A stretch of 64,000 nt of DNA from an uncultured Holophagales bacterium (GTDB lineage: Bacteria > Acidobacteriota > Thermoanaerobaculia > Multivoradales > UBA5704). A program made the position numbers and the translations under genes. The notes under the pieces are model-generated. The model saw nothing but the letters and a program-made list of their open reading frames with translations. It was not told the DNA's origin and made no database searches. Positions 2,484 to 16,423 of this stretch are shown piece by piece; positions within the stretch are counted from its first letter, which is position 1; the number at the start of each line of letters is the position of its first letter. The stretch is taken from NCBI GenBank assembly GCA_963842525.1, contig CAWJGT010000025.1, positions 192,001 to 256,000 of the forward strand. Direction: 5' to 3'.

Positions 2484-2503
2484 ATGATCGGCATGTCTTC
2501 TCA

Positions 2504-4082
2504 GAGGCTGTGAAGGAATCGCGGGTCCGAGATTTGAAGGCGGAGGGCGGTAACAAGGCACATAATAGATGTGAGGATCCTAAAGCGTGCGCGGTCAGGG
2601 GCCACATCGTATCCGACGCGAGCTAAGGCAGCGACAAGCGGTCGAAAACAGACTTGGACAGGGGAATTACCCTCCTTTTCGCCGCGAGGCCCTGACCTTT
2701 ATGCCGATGCGACGCAGCCCGCGCCCAGCGAGAGGGTGCGCATCAGGTTGTGGGCAATGGCGAACCAAAGCAGCACCGCTCGGGCCTTGTGCAGGCCTCG
2801 CACTAACAGACGTTGCAGCCCGCGGTTGCGAGCCAGAGCGTTGACACATTCCACGCTCGACGCCCGCTGCTTGTAGATCTCTTTGGCCTCCGGTGTGCCC
2901 ATGCGTTGGCGCCACTGCGCGATTGCCGGTGAATGGGTCGACAGAGGCACATACGGATCGCGCGTCTTGTCCTTCGGCTTGGCGACCGGCGCATAGACCG
3001 TGGTGCCCAACTCGCTGGCCTTCTCGATATCTTTCAAACCGGCAAAACCACCATCGACCAAGCTCTCTGGCGGAATCACTTCATAGCGCTCTTCCAGTTG
3101 CTCCAGCATCGGCACCAACTGACCCTGATCGCTGCCGCTGTTGCTGACATCCACTCCCACCACGATCTGCGTCTCGGCGTCGACCGAAAACTGACCGTTG
3201 TACGCTGGACGAAATCCTCCATCCCCCATCTTCATCACCCGTGCCTCGGCATCCGTCGTCGACACCCGCGCCTGGTCTCTCTTCTCCGCTGGCTTCTCGG
3301 CCGCAACCTCTGCCATCTGCGCCAACGCCGCCTTGACCCGATGCTGGCGGTCCTCCGCCGCGCGCTGCCGGGCTGCCGTCTGACGACGATTCGTCGCCTC
3401 CGGGTCTTTCTTCAAGCTCCTCGCGCAGGCGTTCAACCTGCTCCTGTGCCTCTTGTAGACAGCGCTCCAGACTCGATTGACGCCGAAACGAGGCCGCACG
3501 GCACTGGCACGCACACGGATGCCGTCCTGCGACACACGGTTCAGTGTCACCAGCTTCTGCTCCATCAACACCGCCACGCTCTGCGTCAGCACCTGATCGA
3601 GAAATTCCTCGTGCTGCACCCGAAAGTCCGACAAAGAGTGGTGGTTCACCCGATACACCCCCCAAGATCCACCGATACGCATCGTGTTGAAGCGTCAGAC
3701 GCTCCAGGGCTCGCGCGCTGCCCACGCCCTCAATCGTGGCGTACAACCATAAGGCCATGTAGATCCGCGGGTCGATGGCTGGACGGCCCGCACCCCCCTC
3801 CACCGATTGCACCTCCGCGTACAGAGGGCTCAGATCCAGGGACTCCACGAACTCCCAGACGGCACGCGCAACGTGATCCGGCGGCAGAAGACTTTCCAGG
3901 TCCACGGGGCGCAGTTCCATCTGCGACCGGTTAGGAACCACCAAACGAGGAACCCCTTTCGCTTTGGCGGGCTCAGCACTCACTTCCGGCGCAGGGATAG
4001 GGAACAGAGTGTCGCTCATGCAGTAAGTATCTCATGGATACGCTCCGCTACGAACCGCTTACCGGGATTTTTTCACAGGCTC
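2504..4082 (-). mobile_element. IS1182-family insertion sequence
   Basis: Imperfect terminal inverted repeats GAGGCTGTGAAGGAATC (2504-2520) and GATTTTTTCACAGGCTC (4066-4082). TCA flanks both ends (TCTCAG shared at both junctions). Encloses a DDE transposase. Confidence 0.85.
2699..4019 (-). CDS. IS1182-family DDE transposase (frameshift near 3650)
   Basis: N-terminal LLPPDHVARAVWEFV...GRPAIDPR...LWLYA; C-terminal STTDAEARVMK...AYNGQ...LVDGGF...YKQRASSVE. Two ORFs (3081..4019, 2699..3682) join at GGVS-VNHH. Confidence 0.85.
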
Positions 4083-4219
4083 TCAGGCCTGCTGGACCCA
4101 TCACCCACTGCCTGTGGTTTCCTGCCAGGGTAGTACAGTCCAAAAGGATGGTCCAATACAGAAATGCACCTCTGGAGGTGTGGCGATCTGTTGAAGGCGG
4201 TTCCTCGCCCGAAAATCGC

Positions 4220-5015
4220 GGGACGAATACGGACGAAACACGGACGAACAGGGACGGGACACGGACGCAGAGCCGAGTGACCAAAAACGTGATTCTGGGC
4301 ACCAGACTGCCCAGTAGGACAGCTCGGCGGAAATGACTGTCCTGCAAGGATTTGCAGGCGAGAAAGCGTCGTGGAGCCCCCCTCGCGCTGCCAAAACAGC
4401 CGAAAACGAAACCAGTTTCGTTTTTTGCGACGCGGAAAAGCCTGCTGGGATTGGTTTTTTTTCGATTTTGACGGATCAAAAAGATGGTTCAAACTGGTGT
4501 AGAAAGGCAACCGCAGGAAGGTAGTTAAAACCAGTGGTCTGGAGGGGGTTGGGAGGGACGCCGCGGCTGGCGCGGGACGGGCCACCTGAGCGGAGGGAGA
4601 GACACGGACGAACACGGACGGACACTCCCCCGCCCGGACCCTCACCCCGACCCTCTCCCACCCGCACTCCCTTCCTTCCGGGAGAGGGCGCCCCCAACCA
4701 AAAAGCCGGACTGACCAAAACTTACGTTCTGATCAGTAGTTTTCCACACCGGACGGCGTCGCGGAAATGCCCGTCCGGCTTGAGTTTGCTCGCGCTGAAC
4801 CGTCATCCAGACCCCCCCGCGGCCGTCTCTACCACGGAAAACGAAACTGAGTTTCGTTTTTTGCGGCGCGGAAAAGCCCGCCGGGATTGGATTTTCGCGA
4901 TTTTGAGGGGGCGAAAAAGGCGGTTCAAACCCCTGTAGAAAGGCAACCGTAGGAAGGTAGTTAAAACCAGTGGTCGGAGGGGGGCGGGAGGGGGGCGCCG
5001 CGGCTGGCGCGGACG
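4220..5015. repeat. Imperfect tandem duplication of a ~360-420 bp non-coding unit
   Basis: Block GAAAACGAAAC..GTTTCGTTTTTTGCG.CGCGGAAAAGCC...TGTAGAAAGGCAACCG.AGGAAGGTAGTTAAAACCAGTGGTC occurs at ~4402-4539 and ~4837-4975. Each unit starts with ACGGACG(A) microrepeats; the second carries a REP at ~4640-4688. Confidence 0.8.
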
Positions 5016-5413
5016 AGCACGAGACGCCGCCAGGCGGCTCGCGCGCAGCGCGCCAAGACGCGGCGCGGGGGTGGGGGGCCGGGTGGGCGGGCCGAGGCCC
5101 TTGCAGGGGCCGGAGGGGGACGGGCGGGGCGGGGTGGTCGAATAAACCCGGCAGGTTGGCGGAGCGCTTCGAAGGCATGGCTCCATGGACCTGTGGAGCC
5201 AAGCTGGCGGACCTTGTTGCGGGGGGAGGCCCGGGTAGGTGCCCGCCCCTGGTTAACATAGTGCAGTCCATTATGTAAAGGCGAAGCCCGTAGGCGGGGA
5301 GTGGGCGCAGGGCGAGGGTCGGATAAAGTCGTTCATTTATCGGACCCTCGCCCGGCGGGAGGGGGAGCCGCCCCCGCCGGAGCCAGGGGCGGGCAGCTCC
5401 CGGGCCGGAGGGC

Positions 5414-7152
5414 GGGGGAAATCAAAATGGGGTGGGCGGCCGTGGATTGGGTGGGCGCACCGGCGGATCGACGGCTGGCTTTCCACGACCACAGTCTCCG
5501 GGGCGGCCACCCGGCCTTGTTGAAACACGGCTGCCATCACCACGAAAAATACGCCGGAGAGAGGGCGGTGGGACGCTGCTATCACGGCGGCGGTGCCCGG
5601 CGCGCGGGGTGGCGGGCTTTTGCGCGAGCGCCTTGTGGGGGCGCGCCCTCGCGGCAGCACCGGGGACGCGGATGGGCGGCGGGAGGTTGCCAACGTCACG
5701 GCTGGATGGACCTCGCGCGGGTGGCGGGACGCTGCCATCGCCGCGGCGGCTGCCCGGCGCGCGGGGTGGTGGGTTTTGCGCCAGCGCCTTTGTGGGGGCG
5801 CGCCTTCGCGGCAGCTCCGCATGGAGACGTTTGCCCTTCTCCACCTTCGGATGGAGCTCGAGGGGTGGGAGCAGGTTGCGGAGCGTCAGCGGAGTCAGCT
5901 GCGTGGGCGGGGGAAAATCGAATGGGCGGGTGGCCGGTAGATTGGGTGGGCGCGCCGGAGGACCGGAGGACGGCTTTTCACGGCCGCAGGCTCTGGGGCG
6001 GCCACCCGGCCTTGTGGGCTGAGGCCCCTTGAGGGACCGGAGGTGGATGGGCGGGGCGGGGTGATCGAATAAACCCGGCAGGTTGGCGTAGCGGTCTTCG
6101 AAGGCATGGCCTTCAGCGGCCAGCGGAGCCAATCTGCCGGACCTTGCTTGATGGGTGGAGCGGGTCGCGCACTGTGCTCGTGAGTGGGTGGCCTGGGTGG
6201 TGGTCACGTGCACTGTGCCGATCCCGCGCGCGGGGGAAATCAAGATGGGTGGGCGGCCGGGAGATCGGGTGGGCGCGCCGGAGGACAGGAGGACGGCTGT
6301 TCACGGCCGCGGGCTCTGGCGCGGCCACTCGGCCTTATTTCATACACGGCTGCCATCACCACGGCAGGATGGACCTCGAGCGGGTGGGAGCAGGTTGCGG
6401 AGCGCCAGCGGAGTCAAGCTGCGAGGCGGGAGATCGAGATGGACTCGGCAGGTTGGCGTAGCTTGCGAAGCCAATCTGCCGGACCTTGCTTGATGGGTGG
6501 AGCGGGTCGCGCACTGTGCTCGTGAGTGGGCGGCTTGGGTGGTGGTCACGTGCACTGTGCCGATCCCGCGCGCGGGGGAGATCAAAATGGGTGGGCGGCC
6601 GGGGAATTGGGTGGGCGCGCCGGAGGACCGGAGGCCGGTTGTTCACGGCCGCAGGCTCAGGGGCGGCCACCCGGCCTCGGGCGGGGGTGGTTCGCCGACC
6701 CGGAGCTGCTCTGTCGGGGCAAGACGGCTCGCAGGCCCTCCTCATCAAATGGGCGGGCGGCCGGGGAATTGGGTGGGCGCGCCGGAGGACCGGAGGACGG
6801 CTTTTCACGGCCGTAGGCTTCGGGGCGGCCACCCGGCCTTGCATGATGGAGGCTCCGACTGCGAAGAGGCTGAGCGCAGAGAGGCTGGGAGCAGTTCGGC
6901 GGAGCGCTCCGCGCGGAGCCGATCTGCGGGCGGAAGCTGCGGGGACCACGGTCGCTGAGCCGACAGAGGAGCGGAGGGTCGGCGAACCGGATGGGCGGGC
7001 GGGGTTCGCCGACCCGGAGCTGCTCTGTCGGGGCAAGACAGCTCGCAGGCCCTCCTCATCAAATGGGTTGACGGCCGGGGAATTGGGTGGGGGCGCCGGA
7101 GGACCGGAGGCCGGCTGTTCACGGCCGCAGGCTTCGGGGCGGCCACCCGGCC
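5414..7152. repeat. Array of six 68-bp palindromic units in a mosaic of other repeats
   Basis: GGGTGGGCGCGCCGGAGGACCGGAGG.CGGCT.TTCACGGCCGCAGGCT..GGGGCGGCCACCCGGCC at 5449-5516, 5944-6011, 6267-6334, 6609-6676, 6771-6838, 7085-7152. Each is preceded by an ATCAAAATGGGTGGGCGGCCGGGGAATT-like motif. Confidence 0.85.
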
Positions 7153-7404
7153 TTTTCAAAAGACGGCCGCCGTCACCGCCCGCGGATGGATCTCGCGCGG
7201 GTGGTTGGGCGCTGCCGTCCCCGCCTGGCTGCTTGGCGCGCGGGGCGGCGGCGTTTGTGTCAACGATCAGGTGGGGGCGCGCCTTTCACGGGAGTTCCGG
7301 GGACGCGGGTGGGTGGCGGGGACGTTGCCGTCGCCGCGGCGGGATGGACCTCGCTCGGGTGGTCGGATGGCGCCGCCGTCCCGGCCTGGGCTGCGGGAGC
7401 CGGA

Positions 7405-7899
7405 TAACGTTTCCGGAAACGAAACCGGGCGGCTGCCGTCGCCGCGGGAGTTGGCCGGCGAGAGGTGGGCGGGCGGCGTGGTCATCGCCGCGGCGGCTGC
7501 CTGGCGCGCGGGGCGGTGGCGTGTGCGTCAGCGGGCTGGTGGTGGTGGGGCGCCTTCGCGATCGGCTCAGGGACGCCGTTGGGTGGGGGTGTAGGCCCCA
7601 CGGTGCCCGGGAGCTCGCGAGGGGGCGTTGCATCCAGCACAGACCGGGCGGTGGGAGCCTCATGGAATTTGCATAGATGTTTGGCTATATTAAAGAAATT
7701 GCAGAACCGCCCAGGCCGCGCCCAGGCCTGCGTGCGGGCCTGCGTAGCCGCGTGCGGACTTGTGTGCAGACCCGCGTGCGGCTTGCGCGGCAAATTCTGC
7801 GGCCCCCCCTCCGCCCCCTTCGGTTCAGCTCTCTGGCGGATGGAAATTTCAGAAGAGCGGAACGAAGCTCCAGAGAGTCTCGGAGTGACGAGCTAAAAT
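7405..7899. repeat. Long imperfect direct repeat, left copy
   Basis: Matches 8880-9330, e.g. TTGGCTATATTAAA, GCGGCAAATTCTGCGGCCCCC, TTCGGTTCAGCTCTCT..CGGATGG.AATTTCAGAAGAGCGGAACGAA. Confidence 0.8.
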
Positions 7900-7970
7900 T
7901 CTCTGGACGAGGGGGTCACGATCGAATGTCGTTCTCGTGGCGCTATTCCTGGATGGGGGGTGAAATCCAC

Positions 7971-8873
7971 ATGCGGACAAAAACCCGACGAGATGTTGAG
8001 GCGCTCTGGACTGTCGAGGACGTAGCCGAGTACCTTGCAGTGCCGATCGAGGCCGTACACGAGATGATCGCCAAGAGGAGCATCCCGCACCTCACGATCT
8101 GCGAGCATCTGCGTTTCCGGAAGTCGGACATCGACCGCTGGCTCGATCTCCTGGCTGTGCCGTGCCTGGACCAAGCTCCACGGCCAGTCGTTCCTCCGTT
8201 GGAGCTCCCCGCAGCGCGCGTGCGTCATCGGGAACGGGATTGTCCCCCGGAAGCTCCCCTGCTCATTCCGCAGCCAACATCCCAGATCTCGGTTCCCTCG
8301 GCTCGGCTATTGCCGCCGACGAATCTCCCTGCCGTACCCGCTTCGCTTGGCCGTAAGGGACCCGAGTATCTCTACCTCCAGGAACTTGTGAAGCGGATGG
8401 GTGAGGCTCATGGCTTCCGGGTCACAATCGAGCAGCAGATCTTGGATGGCCATGGAAGCGTGGACGTTGTCATGGAACGGGAAGGTTGGCGGCTTGGGTG
8501 CGAGATCCTGGTGACTTCAACCGCCGGCCAGGAAGTCGGAAACGTACAAAAGTGTCTCGCCGCCGGCTTCGATGCAGTTGCAGTCGTCTCGCCTGACAAG
8601 CGGCAGATCAAGAAGCTCAGAAGTGCGTTTGCCAAAGGGCTCACACAGGGAGAGCTTGCTCGCGTAAGGCTCCTTGCTCCAGAGGAGCTGTCTGCCTACT
8701 TCGAGGAACTGTCGGCTCCTACCGAGAAGGTAGTAGAAAAAACCATCCACGGATATAAGGTGAAGGTCCGCTACACACGCACTGATCCCGAAGATGAAGC
8801 ACGACGCGTGCGAGCGATAGCCGAGGTCATTGGTCGGAGCCTATTGAGGATGAGGAAGGAGAGCGGTTCGTGA
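7971..8873 (+). CDS. Excisionase-like HTH (HTH_17) protein fused to a PD-(D/E)XK-like domain
   Basis: N-terminal LWTVEDVAEYLAV...IPHLTICEHLRFRKSDIDRWL; Pro-rich linker; C-terminal IEQQILDGHGSVDVVMEREGWRLGCEI...NVQKCLAAGFD. G-rich SD-like sequence before ATG 7971. Confidence 0.7.
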   Translation: MRTKTRRDVEALWTVEDVAEYLAVPIEAVHEMIAKRSIPHLTICEHLRFRKSDIDRWLDLLAVPCLDQAPRPVVPPLELPAARVRHRERDCPPEAPLLIPQPTSQISVPSARLLPPTNLPAVPASLGRKGPEYLYLQELVKRMGEAHGFRVTIEQQILDGHGSVDVVMEREGWRLGCEILVTSTAGQEVGNVQKCLAAGFDAVAVVSPDKRQIKKLRSAFAKGLTQGELARVRLLAPEELSAYFEELSAPTEKVVEKTIHGYKVKVRYTRTDPEDEARRVRAIAEVIGRSLLRMRKESGS

Positions 8874-8879
8874 CCCCTG

Positions 8880-9330
8880 TAACCCTTCCGGAAGCGAAAC
8901 CGGGGGCTGCATCGCCGGCCTGGAGCTGGGCGGCGAGAGGTGGTCGGGTGGCGTGGTCATCGCTTCGGGAGCTGCCCGGCGCGGGGTGGTGCATCGGCGA
9001 GCTGGTGGGGCGCGCGGGATCGCGTCCAGCGTAAACGGGGGCGCCGGAGGGTCTCATGTGTTGTATGTATTATTGGCTATATTAAAAAGAATTAGCAGGC
9101 CCACCTAGGCCGCGCTCCGGCTGCGTGCGGGCCTGCGTGGCCGCGTACGGACTTGCGTGCAGACCTGCGTGTGGCTCCCCAGAGCCGCCTGCGGACTTAC
9201 GTGCGGCTTGCGCGGCAAATTCTGCGGCCCCCCACCCCCCTCCGCTCCCTTCGGTTCAGCTCTCTCGCGGATGGGAATTTCAGAAGAGCGGAACGAAACT
9301 CCAGGAAGTCTCGGAGCGACGATCTAAAAT
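8880..9330. repeat. Long imperfect direct repeat, right copy
   Basis: Homologous to 7405-7899; begins a few bp after the stop of the HTH-nuclease gene. Confidence 0.8.
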
Positions 9331-10077
9331 GTTCTTACTAGATCTCAAATGGGCTTTGTTGGAGCTGCCTTTGGCGATCCAGGATGAAACAGCCTGCCGC
9401 TAGCCGCCGCCGCCCACTTTCACCTAGAACCGGAGCCCGCGGCGAGCTGGAGCATGGATGGTAGGCTGCCGATGTAGGCTACTGGCGGCCAGACGCGGGG
9501 CCCGACTGGCGAGCCCAGCGGCTTGGGCCACTCGCTGGCCGCGGTGGGCTGCTGGCGATCCAGGCGGCTCCAGTGCCGCTGCTAGGCCCTCTACGGCGTT
9601 TTCCCGGCCCGCGGCAGGGTCAGGATAGCCCAGGGGCCGAGGCTCAGAGGAGCTGTCAGACGGCTTGGCTTTGATCGGGCTGCTCGAGCACGATCGCGAA
9701 GCACGGGTGAGAGGCGAGGGAAGGCCCTCCGGCCGGCGATGAGGTAGACGCCTTGCTCACAGGATGCAAGGTCGAGGCAAGCCCACCCAAGCCAGCCAGG
9801 GGCATGCTCGGGAGGATCTCGGGGGTGCCTCCTTCAAGAGGCCTGGCTCCCCCGAGCGGCGCAACAGCCGGCGGGGTGCTCTTGGCCAGCCGTTCTGTTG
9901 ACACTTTGGTACCCCCAAGTGACCCGGGAACACTCGTGAAAAGTGAAGCCACTGAAAACAAACAACTTACACGCAGTGATCGGGTCTGGGGGGACGTGGT
10001 TGGAGCCGTTTTCGCGAGTCCATTGCGGCGCATAGCGGGGCAGAGAGTCGCGACCTTGCCGCTGAGACCTCAGCTAC

Positions 10078-10134
10078 GTCCCCCCTCTCCCGGAGGCAGG
10101 GGGGGCGATGGGAGAGGGGGGACAGGGGGTGAGG
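10078..10134. repeat. REP-like element (CCTCACCCCC/GGGAGAGGG family), half copy
   Basis: CCCCCTCTCCC...GGGAGAGGGGGGACAGGGGGTGAGG, downstream of the FKBP gene. Confidence 0.7.
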
Positions 10135-10136
10135 TC

Positions 10137-10964
10137 CTACTCCTTCGTGATTTCCAGCAGCTCGACGTCGAAGACGAGCAGGCCCTCGGGCATGTCGGGG
10201 GCGCCGCGGTAGGCGAGCTTCTTGGGAATCCAGAAGCGCCGCGTCTCGCCCTCGACCATGAGCGGGATCCCCTCGGTCCAGCCGGGGATCACCTTGCGCA
10301 GGCTGAAGACGGCCGGCGCTCCCTTGGCGAGCGAGGAGTCGAACATCTTCCCGTCGGTGGTCCAGCCGGTGTAGTGGACCCTGACCATGCTGTCCGCCCG
10401 CGGATTGCGGGTGCCGGTGCCGGGGGTGAGGACCTTGGAGGCCAGGCCGGACTTCGTGACCTGGGCGTCGGCCGGCGGCGCGGCCACGTCCGGCGGCGCC
10501 GGCGGGACGCGAAGGAGGTCCTGCAGCTCGACGTCGAAGACCAGCATCCCCTGGGGCCGGTCGGGCCGGCCTTCGTAGGCGAGCTTCGCCGGAATCCACA
10601 GGCGCCGCTTTTCGCCCTCCACCATGAGCTGCAGCCCCTCGCTCCAGCCGGCGATGACCTTGTCGAGAGGCAGGACCATGGGCTTGCCGCGCGCCACGGA
10701 CGAATCGAACATCTTGCCGTCGGTGGTCCAGCCGGTGTAGTGGACCTTGACGGAGTCACCCGCCTGCGGGTGATCGGTGCCGGTGCCGGGGGCGAGGACC
10801 TTGGAGGCCAGGCCGCTCGCCGTGGTCTGGGCGTCAGCCGGCGGCGCGGCCACGTCCGGCGGCGCCGGGATGGGCTCTCCGGCAGGGGTCTGGGCCGTGG
10901 CCAGGAAAGGAGCAGTCAGGGCGAGCAGAACGGCGAGGAGCGGGAGGCGGACGGCGTTCTTCAT
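10137..10964 (-). CDS. FKBP-type peptidyl-prolyl cis-trans isomerase with two tandem domains and a signal peptide
   Basis: Two copies of VHYTGWTTDGKMFDSS...VIxGWxEG...LVFDVEL; N-terminal signal peptide. Confidence 0.92.
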   Translation of the reverse strand: MKNAVRLPLLAVLLALTAPFLATAQTPAGEPIPAPPDVAAPPADAQTTASGLASKVLAPGTGTDHPQAGDSVKVHYTGWTTDGKMFDSSVARGKPMVLPLDKVIAGWSEGLQLMVEGEKRRLWIPAKLAYEGRPDRPQGMLVFDVELQDLLRVPPAPPDVAAPPADAQVTKSGLASKVLTPGTGTRNPRADSMVRVHYTGWTTDGKMFDSSLAKGAPAVFSLRKVIPGWTEGIPLMVEGETRRFWIPKKLAYRGAPDMPEGLLVFDVELLEITKE

Positions 10965-10985
10965 GGCGGCGGTACGCTACCATGT

Positions 10986-11151
10986 CCTCACCCCCTGGCC
11001 CCCTCTCCCGTCTCCCTTCCACCCCCCGCCGGGAGAGGGGGAACGCAACCGAATCCATCGTGCCCAGGATCGCCACCTCCGCATCATCTACGTTCCCCCT
11101 CTCCCGGGGATCGGGTGGGTGGGAGATGGGAGAGGGGGACAGGGGGTGAGG
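10986..11151. repeat. REP-like palindromic element (CCTCACCCCC family)
   Basis: CCTCACCCCCTGGCCCCCTCTCCC...GGGAGAGGGGGACAGGGGGTGAGG inverted arms; the right arm overlaps the 3' end of the neighbouring gene. Confidence 0.8.
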
Positions 11152-11818
11152 TCGCCACATAGACCACATGCCGCGGGCCTCCCCGGCCGGGCCGGCGGCG
11201 CTCGACCCGGAAGCCGGCCTGGCGGAGACGCTTTTCGAAGGCCGCGTCGTGGTCCTCGGACCAGACGGTGAAGACGCCGCCGGGGCTCAGCGCCTCGCGG
11301 GTGCGGCGCAAGGCGTCCGGGCTGTAGAAGGGGTCATCCCGGGCCTGCGTGGCCTCGCGAGGCCCCTCGTACAGGTCCAGGATGATCGCATCGAAGTGTC
11401 CGCTTTCCCCCGTGCCGGCGGCCTCGGCGATCCGCTCCGCGGCATCCCCCAGCTCGATCGTGACCCGCGGATCGGCCACGGCCCCGCCGGTGAGCCCGGC
11501 CAGGGGGCCGCGGCACCAGCGGACGATCGCGGGATTGATCTCGGCGACCAGCACCCGGGCTCCGCGCGGAAGCCGGTCGAGGGCGGCGCGCAGTGTGTAG
11601 CCCATCCCCAGGCCGCCGATCAGCACCCGCGGCCTTGGCCGTCCGGCGATCCGCTGGCAGGCGATCTCCGCCACCGCGGCCTCGGAGAGGTGGGCCGCGC
11701 TGTTCATCAGCACCCGCCCGCCGACCGTGATGACGAAGTCCGACTCCCCGCGCTGCCGCAGCTCCAGCCGCCCCTCGTCCGTGTCCACGGCGTCGACGGT
11801 CTGCCAGGGACGGGTCAT
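11084..11818 (-). CDS. Spermidine synthase-like SAM-dependent methyltransferase fold protein
   Basis: MTRPWQTVD...VLMNS...VLIGGLGMGYTL...FDAIILDLYEGP...VWS. ATG overlaps the TPR gene stop. Confidence 0.8.
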   Translation of the reverse strand: MTRPWQTVDAVDTDEGRLELRQRGESDFVITVGGRVLMNSAAHLSEAAVAEIACQRIAGRPRPRVLIGGLGMGYTLRAALDRLPRGARVLVAEINPAIVRWCRGPLAGLTGGAVADPRVTIELGDAAERIAEAAGTGESGHFDAIILDLYEGPREATQARDDPFYSPDALRRTREALSPGGVFTVWSEDHDAAFEKRLRQAGFRVERRRPGRGGPRHVVYVATSPPVPLSHLPPTRSPGEGERR

Positions 11819-15288: not shown

Positions 15289-15704
15289 CTAGCGCCAGCG
15301 TCTGGACGGCCGATCCAAAAACTCCGAGAGGGTAACCAGGGTATGGCCTCCGGTCGCCATGGAGAGTCTCGCCATGAACGGCTCTGTATGCTCCACGATG
15401 GTTCGGCGAATCCACCGCAACTTTCGGACGAAGAGCTCGGCGCGCTCCCGATTGGTGCCCTTGCCCACCAGGATGAAGACCTTCACCCCATGGACCATCA
15501 AGGCGATCTGCTCCTCAGGAGCATCCCTGAGGTGATCCTTTGTGATCGCGATCCAACCCTTTTCTCCTACAAAGGGAAGCCATTCCACATCAGGTGTTGC
15601 AGGTGGAAAATGATCGTGAAGCTCTTCGACCCGGAGGCCGGCCAATCTCAGATGTGCAGCGAAGAGGCCTCGGAGATTCTCATCGACAAAAAACGTCGGT
15701 TCAT
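15289..15704 (-). CDS. VapC45-like PIN-domain toxin (start apparently 1 nt out of frame)
   Basis: FFVDENL...D.EWLPFVGEKGWIAITKD. ATGA overlap with the antitoxin stop at 15701-15704. Confidence 0.75.
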
Positions 15705-16423
15705 GCTGCCGCGCGTTCGTAGAAGATGGCGGCTTCAATTTCGTAGGGTTCCAGTCCGTAGTCCTGCGCCACGTCTTCTGGCAGCTCGCCGGCATCGATC
15801 CTGCCGACAACTGCCGAAGTACGAATACCTCTCGAGACGAGGATCGGCCGGCCGAACGAGATGGCGGGATCGATCATGATCAGCTTCGGTGCAAGTTTCA
15901 GTGCATCAATGTCGTAGGAGCCCGTGGGGAACATCCTCGTAGGAAGCCCGAAAGGATTCCTGTTCACCCGTTCGAGCACAGCTCTGAGCAGCTCTTTCGT
16001 AGCAAGTTGACCGGAAAGATTGAGATTGATGAGCTGGCCGAACCTTTCCAGGAACACATTCCCGGGCATCGCCTGCAGCTCCCTGCTCAGAAGCAGACGC
16101 GAGATGCCGAACTCTTTCTCGGCATAATCGAGCGCCTGCCGAACTGCAGCCATCTTGACACCATGGTCGACCCGCAGAGCCCGCAGTACCCACGCCTCGA
16201 TCAGATTATTGAACGACAGAAGCTGTCCGGTCTTGATGAGAGGCGGCCAACGCTCTATCCCTCCTCCCTTTGGGTAGCTCCGTCCCCGGACCCAAGAGCG
16301 CAGCGTCGAAGGCGAGATGTGCAGATAGTGAGATGCCCGCGCGACCGAATAGCGCGGCTTTTCCTCTGGAGTCAGGTCCCCATAGAGGAGTCGAAACGAT
16401 TCCGAGCGGTTGATCACAGGCAC
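15701..16423 (-). CDS. DUF433-domain antitoxin (VapB45-like) with N-terminal HTH
   Basis: YSVARASHYLHISPSTLRSW (HTH); IDPAISFGRPIL...AGELPEDVAQDYGL...IEAAI (DUF433). Confidence 0.85.
   Translation of the reverse strand: MPVINRSESFRLLYGDLTPEEKPRYSVARASHYLHISPSTLRSWVRGRSYPKGGGIERWPPLIKTGQLLSFNNLIEAWVLRALRVDHGVKMAAVRQALDYAEKEFGISRLLLSRELQAMPGNVFLERFGQLINLNLSGQLATKELLRAVLERVNRNPFGLPTRMFPTGSYDIDALKLAPKLIMIDPAISFGRPILVSRGIRTSAVVGRIDAGELPEDVAQDYGLEPYEIEAAIFYERAAA

Follow-up and report, generated by a model that had tools for sequence, protein, structure and literature searches.

The contig CAWJGT010000025.1 of an uncultured Holophagales bacterium carries an array of six hairpin units, which we studied in a window of 64,000 nt (contig positions 192,001-256,000; all coordinates below are positions in this window). 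The source genome comprises 9.95 Mb in 34 contigs, has 67.5% G+C, and is 96% complete. The array is the 3' tail of a larger conserved module that is non-coding and strongly folded, and which the initial annotation of this DNA had missed. Our best reading is that the module is a long structured RNA, or a single-stranded DNA (ssDNA) element, that is borne by mobile elements and has an expandable tail of hairpins. Its carriers are tailed double-stranded DNA (dsDNA) prophages, as identified by their terminase and portal genes, and small islands of soil Acidobacteriota. Here we describe the anatomy of the module, its conservation, the covariation and strand asymmetry of its fold, its linkage to an integrase gene, and its independence from the helix-turn-helix (HTH) protein that is encoded downstream.

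A conserved core domain precedes the hairpin units

When we aligned loci from three genera, we found that about 1 kb of conserved non-coding sequence precedes the first unit. Within this genome, 4230-7904 and 9120-10000 are common to the array loci. The constant part of this sequence lies just upstream of the units:

5210..5427, + strand: core domain of 215 positions with multiple stems; a closing stem (5229-5252 with 5383-5404) surrounds three arms; the match to the core model scores 209 bits

The predicted minimum free energy of the core is -126.3 kcal/mol (z = -8.35). Ten of the 11 loci of this genome have a single core just ahead of the units, and so do nearly all loci of its relatives. 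Core copies within the genome are 89-98% identical.

The predicted pairs of the core covary. In a MAFFT alignment of 26 copies, 10 of the 60 pairs had changed on both sides. We also aligned 45 copies (40 of them distinct, from genomes and soil metagenomes) to the core model. In this model-fitted alignment, 96.8% of the cells were paired, versus 38-51% with slid partners, and 30 of the 60 pairs had changed on both sides; no measure was reached by any of 500 shuffles. For the hairpin units of the relatives, again in an alignment fitted to the model, 8 of 23 pairs covaried and 91.2% of cells were paired (reached by 0 of 500 shuffles). The loops and junctions are invariant, whereas the stem tops covary.

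Core and units also keep their arrangement. In metagenome contigs (examples are L143, L145, L153, L107, L130, L142, and L146), a unit lies about 18 nt after the core, often with more units at a spacing of about 290 nt. Most relatives have just 1-2 units, versus 3-11 per array in this genome. In the metagenome loci L128, L138, and L109 (which is the same as L053 of genome G005), core and unit alternate (core-unit-core-unit), so the whole pair, and not the hairpin alone, can be tandemly duplicated.

The six hairpin units in the window

A repeat search recovered the units as a single family of six copies, with the coordinates that the initial annotation had given: six 68-nt units in the same orientation, starting at 5449, 5944, 6267, 6609, 6771, and 7085 (start-to-start spacings of 495, 323, 342, 162, and 314 nt). 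All six begin with GGGTGG and end with GGCC, and five of the six contain two GGAGG motifs. The conserved motif that had been noticed before each unit is real, and corresponds to a leader of about 30 nt (ATC-AAAT-GGG-GGGCGG...). With their leaders, the units and a second hairpin between the last two of them are as follows:

5400..5529, + strand: unit 1 with leader (68-nt hairpin at 5449-5516)
5895..6024, + strand: unit 2 (hairpin at 5944-6011)
6218..6347, + strand: unit 3 (hairpin at 6267-6334)
6560..6689, + strand: unit 4 (hairpin at 6609-6676)
6723..6851, + strand: unit 5 (hairpin at 6771-6838)
6960..7031, + strand: second hairpin, an inverted repeat with 29-bp arms within the 226-nt type of spacer; kept after the unit in other genera
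7037..7165, + strand: unit 6 (hairpin at 7085-7152, then TTTTCAAAAG)

For every unit, a long imperfect hairpin is predicted, with energies of -37.7 to -50.9 kcal/mol on the + strand (z = -0.9 to -4.5). Folds of the - strand are weaker (-29.9 to -36.7 kcal/mol), and the + strand is always the more stable one. Sequence variants among the units were originally proposed to preserve pairing, with a C-G to T-A compensation in copy 1. That compensation was not found: among the six copies in the window, 0 of 26 predicted pairs had changed on both sides. The broader claim did hold once all 66 full-length copies from the genome were aligned, as 7 of 23 pairs then showed covariation.

The region has no credible open reading frame (ORF), as first thought. 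The ORFs of 4034-7896 lack the high G+C at third codon positions (GC3) and low G+C at second positions (GC2) that mark real genes here, and none of the 11 has a match in Pfam. The units are also distinct from the two families of repetitive extragenic palindromic (REP) sequences in the window (10001-10200 and 10950-11200), each of which has more than 100 copies.

Copies and spacers across the genome

With blastn, the unit was found 70 times in the genome, and each copy lies in one of 11 loci on nine contigs. Each of these loci is an array of 3-11 units in the same orientation; an inverted unit fragment of 59 nt lies at the end of the array on contig C23. Unit copies within the genome are 80-94% identical. 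With 70 of 70 copies in array loci, the unit is not an ordinary REP sequence or miniature inverted-repeat transposable element scattered across the genome.

The spacers, which are 48-1792 nt long, had been described as variable. Instead, 49 of the 55 spacers of over 20 nt fall into nine families that are used again and again (with 12, 9, 8, 5, 5, 4, 2, 2, and 2 members), and the order and number of these families vary among arrays. Because the spacers are reused, they are not unique sequences that would be worth searching against phages.

One locus (L044, at C9:35029-41559) combines a five-unit array with a three-unit array that lacks a core. The two are inverted relative to each other, and they flank 4.4 kb with a PIN/Phd toxin-antitoxin pair and a gene of unknown product. 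This layout is as expected for an invertible or recombined segment.

Just past the last unit of two other arrays, ARAGORN calls a "tRNA-???" with a two-letter anticodon (L041:11112-11197 and L045:9012-9095; the latter overlaps a spurious ORF). Both calls are probably false and lie on repeat-derived hairpins. No tRNA or transfer-messenger RNA was found in the array region of the window.

The structure belongs to the G-rich strand

Among the predicted pairs, G-U cells outnumber A-C cells by 195 to 10 in the units and by 82 to 1 in the core. Folds of the + strand are 4-16 kcal/mol more stable than folds of the - strand, and the G skew is +0.22 over 2.6 kb of the region, which has G-tracts. The excess of G-U over A-C and the G skew indicate that the structure belongs to the G-rich + strand, that is, to a rightward transcript or to the top strand of the DNA.

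The module is linked to a subfamily of integrases

At five loci of this genome, a gene for an Xer-like tyrosine integrase immediately precedes the module on the same strand. These five genes are all of the copies of this integrase subfamily in the genome (5 of 5). The integrase matches the XerC and XerD models best, yet it scores below their cutoffs; against the integron integrase model (TIGR02249), it scores 56.8 and 66.4 bits versus a cutoff of 265. In G010, a nearly complete genome from another genus with nine cores, a core lies downstream on the same strand at all six loci with a subfamily integrase (44-100% identity, some of them broken), and a paralogue with 36% identity has no core downstream. 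Overall, 22 loci have 4 kb or more of sequence upstream; 13 of these possess the integrase, in every case ahead of the module and on the same strand. Five of the 11 loci in this genome lack it, and for a sixth, on C12, the contig ends 230 nt upstream, which is too short a stretch to judge. The homology between C23 and G010 begins 46 nt before the start codon of the integrase, which implies that the integrase and the module travel together into different surroundings.

Those surroundings include the ends of prophages, as well as islands in which a large serine recombinase adjoins tRNA-Glu or tRNA-Pro/Arg. At four of the five integrase loci, the opposite strand upstream carries a large terminase gene (PHROG 2), and a Mu-type portal gene follows beyond it in both of the loci whose contigs extend that far. 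Comparing the region of the left boundary of the C1 prophage with its right end, we found no attachment-site repeats; the longest exact repeats (15-16 nt) resemble chance matches. Other loci have AEP primase-helicase or BrxC/TerB genes upstream instead of the integrase. In C4 (L042:6565-8967) and G020 (L090:10886-13621), the gene immediately ahead of the module on its strand encodes an AEP primase joined to a ResIII/DEAD helicase (AEP-TOTE in Pfam, PrimPol in PADLOC).

In the window, the position of the integrase is occupied by an insertion sequence (IS):

2500..4100, - strand: IS element whose DDE transposase is divided between two overlapping frames (2699-3682 and 3081-4019; Pfam DDE_Tnp_1_6, DDE_Tnp_1, and DUF772)

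There are four other copies of this IS in the genome. It lies outside of the module and marks the module's truncated left side; no integrase remnant was found between the IS and the leader of the module. On its other side, the IS directly borders the beginning of a radical SAM/SPASM gene (1192-2607, - strand), which adjoins a gene of the FGE-sulfatase family (274-1035, - strand). Both of these genes have a weaker GC3 bias than core genes do.

Other parts of the region

Between the IS and the core, and after the last unit, we mapped these parts:

4221..4575, + strand: leader ("L") module, copy 1, with short tandem repeats of the GGACGAA type, a terminator-like inverted repeat at about 4276-4310, and, at about 4400-4430, an AT-rich hairpin with a run of T behind it
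4630..4700, no strand assigned: ordinary short REP inserted between the leader copies, with scores of short matches genome-wide
4705..5018, + strand: leader module, copy 2, with a hairpin at 4710-4737 and an AT-rich hairpin plus T6 at about 4836-4865
4994..5066, + strand: near-invariant block of 73 nt, closed by GGCGCCGCG/CGCGGCGCC; an optional module that 11 of 16 aligned loci possess, with almost the same sequence in different genera
5148..5215, + strand: hairpin CGGCAGGTTGGC...GCCAAGCTGGCG after G-tracts; conserved in the alignments, with parts that recur inside array spacers
7160..7640, + strand: G-rich tail with repeated motifs of the GYTGCCRTC type; shared by other genera, where it likewise comes after the unit
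7640..7904, + strand: "R" module, copy 1; an AT-rich patch comes first, then 12-nt tandem repeats (CTGCGTGCGGGC-like, about five of them) and a conserved leader whose end lies immediately ahead of the cargo gene
7971..8873, + strand: cargo gene for an excisionase-type HTH protein of 300 amino acids (Pfam HTH_17; TIGR01764 above its cutoff)
9040..9340, + strand: R module, copy 2, which like copy 1 has an AT-rich patch, about five 12-nt tandem repeats, and a conserved leader
9341..9997, + strand: "T" region, 660 nt of non-coding sequence common to six loci; its right end (...GGGTCTGGGGGGACGT) is sharply conserved

The first leader copy has homology only to other array loci, and it comes directly after the stop codon of the integrase wherever the integrase is kept. 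The short tandem GGACGAA/ACGGACG repeats (4221-4262 and 4606-4626; L049:9334-9360) trail this stop codon at intact loci, and they persist in the window, which has no integrase.

According to the initial annotation, the array might work with the protein encoded at 7971..8873, which was described as an HTH-nuclease. Neither part of this proposal was borne out. The protein matches only itself in the genome, and arrays recur beside other genes at 10 other loci, so by the test of co-occurrence that the initial annotation had itself proposed, it is not the partner of the array. Searches of Pfam, NCBIfam, PHROGs, PADLOC, and PDB sequences found no nuclease domain, just the excisionase-type HTH (residues 12-58). 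At other arrays, the downstream genes differ; among them are a PIN/Phd pair and a gene that resembles WHH-nuclease toxins.

The HTH gene lies between the two R copies, and R copies are found only downstream of arrays. One soil metagenome contig (depth 3.6) joins 7766 to 9165 without the gene. It looks as if the HTH gene plus one R copy were a cassette that is gained or lost by recombination between R copies. Farther right, the last 100 nt or so of the T region are very conserved (TTGACACTTTGGTACCCCCAAGTGACCCGGG...GGGTCTGGGGGGACGT). All of the loci diverge immediately beyond this end, so the composite element may truly finish here on its right side. No empty site could be defined, because in G003 and G004, two relatives from the same genus, synteny with the window extends no farther than the FKBP gene. 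The two abundant REP-like families mentioned above flank this FKBP gene and have about 113-124 (10001-10200) and 175-198 (10950-11200) blastn matches genome-wide. Beyond them, a PIN_10-domain gene (15289-15810, - strand) overlaps the end of a DUF433/HTH_66 gene (15701-16423, - strand); these two are probably a toxin-antitoxin pair.

Distribution of the module

We searched 61 genomes of the family with the unit model and found the element in 12 of them, including the source genome. Leaving the source genome aside, it is present in 4 of 5, 1 of 2, and 6 of 10 genomes of three genera, and in 0 of 43 genomes from eight other genera. The carriers among the relatives are metagenome-assembled genomes (MAGs) labeled as Holophagales, Thermoanaerobaculia, or Acidobacteriota. 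Among species representatives, an exact two-arm pattern identified 18 stretches in 7 MAGs, and a looser pattern identified 26 soil-type metagenome contigs.

In a sample of 151 genomes from across the class, there were just two matches outside of the family (E = 2e-8 and 1e-4). The better of these belongs to another family of the order; it has retained the invariant sequence of the junction, and its closing stem has compensatory changes. This remote homologue adjoins a DnaG-type primase gene and an XerC-like integrase gene, and it is convergent with the integrase.

Collections of known elements gave no matches. The covariance models of Rfam 15 (which include GOLLD, ROOL, HEARO, Acido-1, group I and II introns, and ribozymes) had no hit at gathering score in the whole window and no hit at E up to 1 in 4000-10200. 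Three patterns from the invariant blocks had no match in IMG/VR, and 4980-5530 had no blastn match in phage and plasmid collections. We found no description of the element in the literature; this search did not extend to supplements, such as the motif lists of PMC5737381, where a related motif absent from Rfam might be included.

What the module might be

That the array is a structured single-stranded element, either RNA or ssDNA, had already been suggested, and the strand-specific fold and the covariation support this. As for what it is, we give about an even chance to the explanation that the hairpins are the repeat-expanded 3' tail of an integrase-linked structured RNA module of integrative elements. 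Because the module folds on the G-rich strand, we read it as a long structured RNA that would be transcribed in the direction of the integrase gene. We put the probability that it acts as a transcript at about one half, because the junctions of its multi-stem core are invariant and the stem tops covary, as is typical of RNAs, and because it has many G-U pairs. The module begins after the integrase stop codon, and its constant center is one 215-nt core with, about 18 nt later, the hairpin units; the G-rich tail, the AT-rich R module, and variable cargo genes come next. The core might serve as a fixed fold and the hairpins as a multivalent tail whose copy number can vary. Such an RNA could act in trans as a scaffold or a decoy, or it could have a role in cis in the replication or recombination of the element.

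Several observations weigh against this explanation. No RNA run was listed as containing 4200-10100 of the window, and the four runs that could be aligned to it were short DNA contigs that do not span the array. There was no convincing promoter: the scan gave one promoter-like site, which is on the other strand and inside the HTH gene. Four terminator-like sites were found versus 5.1 expected, and neither kind of site exceeded what shuffled sequence would give. Covariation and the asymmetry of G-U (or G-T) pairs cannot distinguish an RNA from folded ssDNA, and the G-rich composition itself favors G-U over A-C. Motif searches based on covariation have picked up integron attC sites, as described in PMC5737381. 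Because the unit alignment of the relatives and the 45-copy core alignment were fitted to the model, their pair counts lean toward structure. Some of the conservation reflects recent spread rather than selection, as most of the copies are closely related. Finally, the remote element is convergent with its integrase, which argues against simple co-transcription and for a site that acts in cis.

The best of the alternatives, although we consider it unlikely, is an RNA-primed replication origin of the R-loop type. In such an origin, a hybrid formed by the G-rich transcript would prime synthesis, the hairpins on the displaced strand would be signals akin to those for primosome assembly, and the AT-rich R module would be the unwinding region. 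The G skew of +0.22 over 2.6 kb with its G-tracts, the strand specificity of the hairpins, and the downstream AT-rich patch with 12-nt tandem repeats would all suit this arrangement, and there is a precedent in mycobacteriophages, whose prophage replication is described in PMC7157519 as requiring non-coding RNA regions. Primase genes lie directly beside the module at three loci (the AEP primase-helicase in C4 and in L090 of G020, and a DnaG-type primase in G192), but most loci have no neighboring primase, and the Pfam label of the AEP proteins (TOTE) denotes a conflict system rather than replication. A G-rich strand is present; no promoter was identified. There is no cluster of DnaA boxes (3500-10500 has a single match, at 8 of 9 positions), episomal replication of these elements is unsupported, and a conserved multi-stem core of 215 nt is not a known requirement of such origins.

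More doubtful still is the idea that the hairpins are recombination sites, similar to attC or to the attP of CTX phage, that are folded from ssDNA and used by the adjacent Xer-like recombinase, with the number of units and the order of spacers changing by site-specific recombination. That a single integrase subfamily is so strictly adjacent (5 of 5 and 6 of 6 loci) is what one would expect, and the adjacency is kept in the remote homologue despite the flipped orientation; yet 5 of the 11 loci in this genome have no integrase. Similarly, the stems are imperfect, bulged, and strand-specific, but the integrase is not of the integron type (56.8 bits versus a cutoff of 265), R''/R' boxes have no matches on either strand, and the spacers contain no genes. 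The arrays draw on the same few types of spacers in differing order and number, and on C9 an inverted partial array flanks toxin-antitoxin cargo; unequal crossing-over accounts for the spacer patterns equally well. Tailed dsDNA prophages offer no obvious single-stranded stage at which such sites could fold, and the complex core would be left unexplained.

We also think it improbable, to nearly the same degree, that the array is a repeat expansion without function: a selfish or neutral satellite that grew by slippage in the attachment arm (the non-coding end) of a prophage family, with a hairpin that seems to be conserved because the copies are young. Such a satellite would account for the great differences in copy number between genomes (1-2 versus 3-11), for spacers that are themselves repeats, for the 80-94% identity of the copies within the genome, and for contig breaks at the arrays in fragmented MAGs, which are typical of repeats. 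It would not account for stem changes that are compensated on both sides between genera and in metagenome copies, for the order and spacing of unit and core that are kept across three genera, or for invariant loops and junctions alongside covarying stem tops.

A more specific proposal, which we regard as a long shot, is that the core and hairpins together are the obligate folded partner, as RNA or as ssDNA, of the adjacent Xer-like recombinase, which would use them to choose or assemble its sites. The original suggestion of a hairpin array partnered with the downstream HTH (nuclease) protein, which would make it a system akin to CRISPR (clustered regularly interspaced short palindromic repeats) or to toxin-antitoxin pairs, has proximity in its favor and is hardly credible, given a protein that is unique in the genome and has no detectable nuclease domain, different downstream genes at the 10 other array loci, a soil contig that joins the R modules without the gene, and spacers that are reused.

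Comparison with known systems

Like other structured non-coding RNAs, the module has a secondary structure that is supported by covariation (changes on both sides in 7 of 23 unit pairs and 10 of 60 core pairs in the MAFFT-based alignments). Its closest counterparts in this respect are GOLLD and ROOL, which are described as large, elaborately folded non-coding elements of unknown function that were found only by covariation (PMC5737381; PMC12286853 covers their structures). GOLLD and ROOL are often in prophages and also occur outside of recognizable ones. The module differs in having no match to their Rfam models at E up to 1, in its host phylum, in having an integrase rather than tRNA genes as its neighbor, and in its tandem tail of hairpins that varies in copy number; also, its RNA nature is putative.

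Integron attC arrays, including clusters without an integrase, resemble the module in that they are same-orientation, imperfect, strand-specific hairpins beside a tyrosine recombinase gene, with toxin-antitoxin and accessory genes nearby. In contrast to those arrays, the recombinase here is not IntI, the spacers are short, non-coding, and reused, a 215-nt core lies ahead of the array, and the integrase is co-oriented with the array. On both strands of 5300-7300, we found no pairs of R'' (RYYYAAC) and R' (GTTRRRY) boxes. We rejected an integron cassette array on these grounds: the folding is strand-specific as it should be, but IntI, the R''/R' boxes, and gene-bearing cassettes are all absent.

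In CTX phage, XerCD uses a folded single strand, the attP(+) hairpin, whose stem mimics a recombination site; CTX is a filamentous phage with single-stranded DNA. The module is similar in placing an Xer-type recombinase beside a folded hairpin. Unlike CTX, the carriers here are tailed dsDNA prophages, and no dif-like site was identified in the stems.

Another partial likeness is to RNA II of ColE1 and to the RNA-based prophage origins of mycobacteriophages (PMC7157519): these are transcribed non-coding regions in the integration or maintenance part of a mobile element, a part that the module also occupies, and the G-rich strand of the module would favor an RNA-DNA hybrid. No relation at the sequence level is expected. 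The mycobacteriophages with RNA-based origins are described as lacking an integrase (PMC7157519), whereas the elements here carry one, and a replication role for the module is putative. Finally, REP sequences and bacterial interspersed mosaic elements are also GC-rich imperfect palindromes that are clustered and intergenic. However, REPs (including the two families in the window) have hundreds of scattered copies, and the units occur in 11 loci only, always with the same flanking modules.

Three other candidates were rejected. A CRISPR array does not fit, with a unit of 68 nt (130 nt with its leader) and spacers of 48-1792 nt that are largely reused; no Cas families were found among the Pfam matches of 13 ORFs in the window and 67 ORFs around nine other arrays. 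A type III toxin-antitoxin system (ToxI-like) does not fit either, as the downstream genes differ at every locus and the window's gene is unique. The GGA motifs suggested a sponge for CsrA, but no CsrA gene was found in this genome, which is 96% complete, although CsrA was found in control genomes.

Implications

If the module is transcribed, it would be a new class of large structured RNA, with a conserved fold of at least about 350 nt and up to several kb with its tail, in hosts from one of the most abundant and least tractable phyla in soil. It would combine two features that are not seen together in known large RNAs: a strict link to one subfamily of integrases, and a hairpin tail whose copy number varies by more than tenfold between loci. 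If the module is the obligate partner of the recombinase, then the integrase and the structured module would form a self-contained mobile unit of a kind that has not yet been described for tyrosine recombinases.

Whatever its chemistry, the module marks the junction between the integrase and variable cargo (toxins, toxin-antitoxin pairs, and restriction-like genes), which makes it a practical signpost for mobile elements and their cargo in MAGs of Acidobacteriota. It also explains many of the contig breaks in acidobacterial assemblies.

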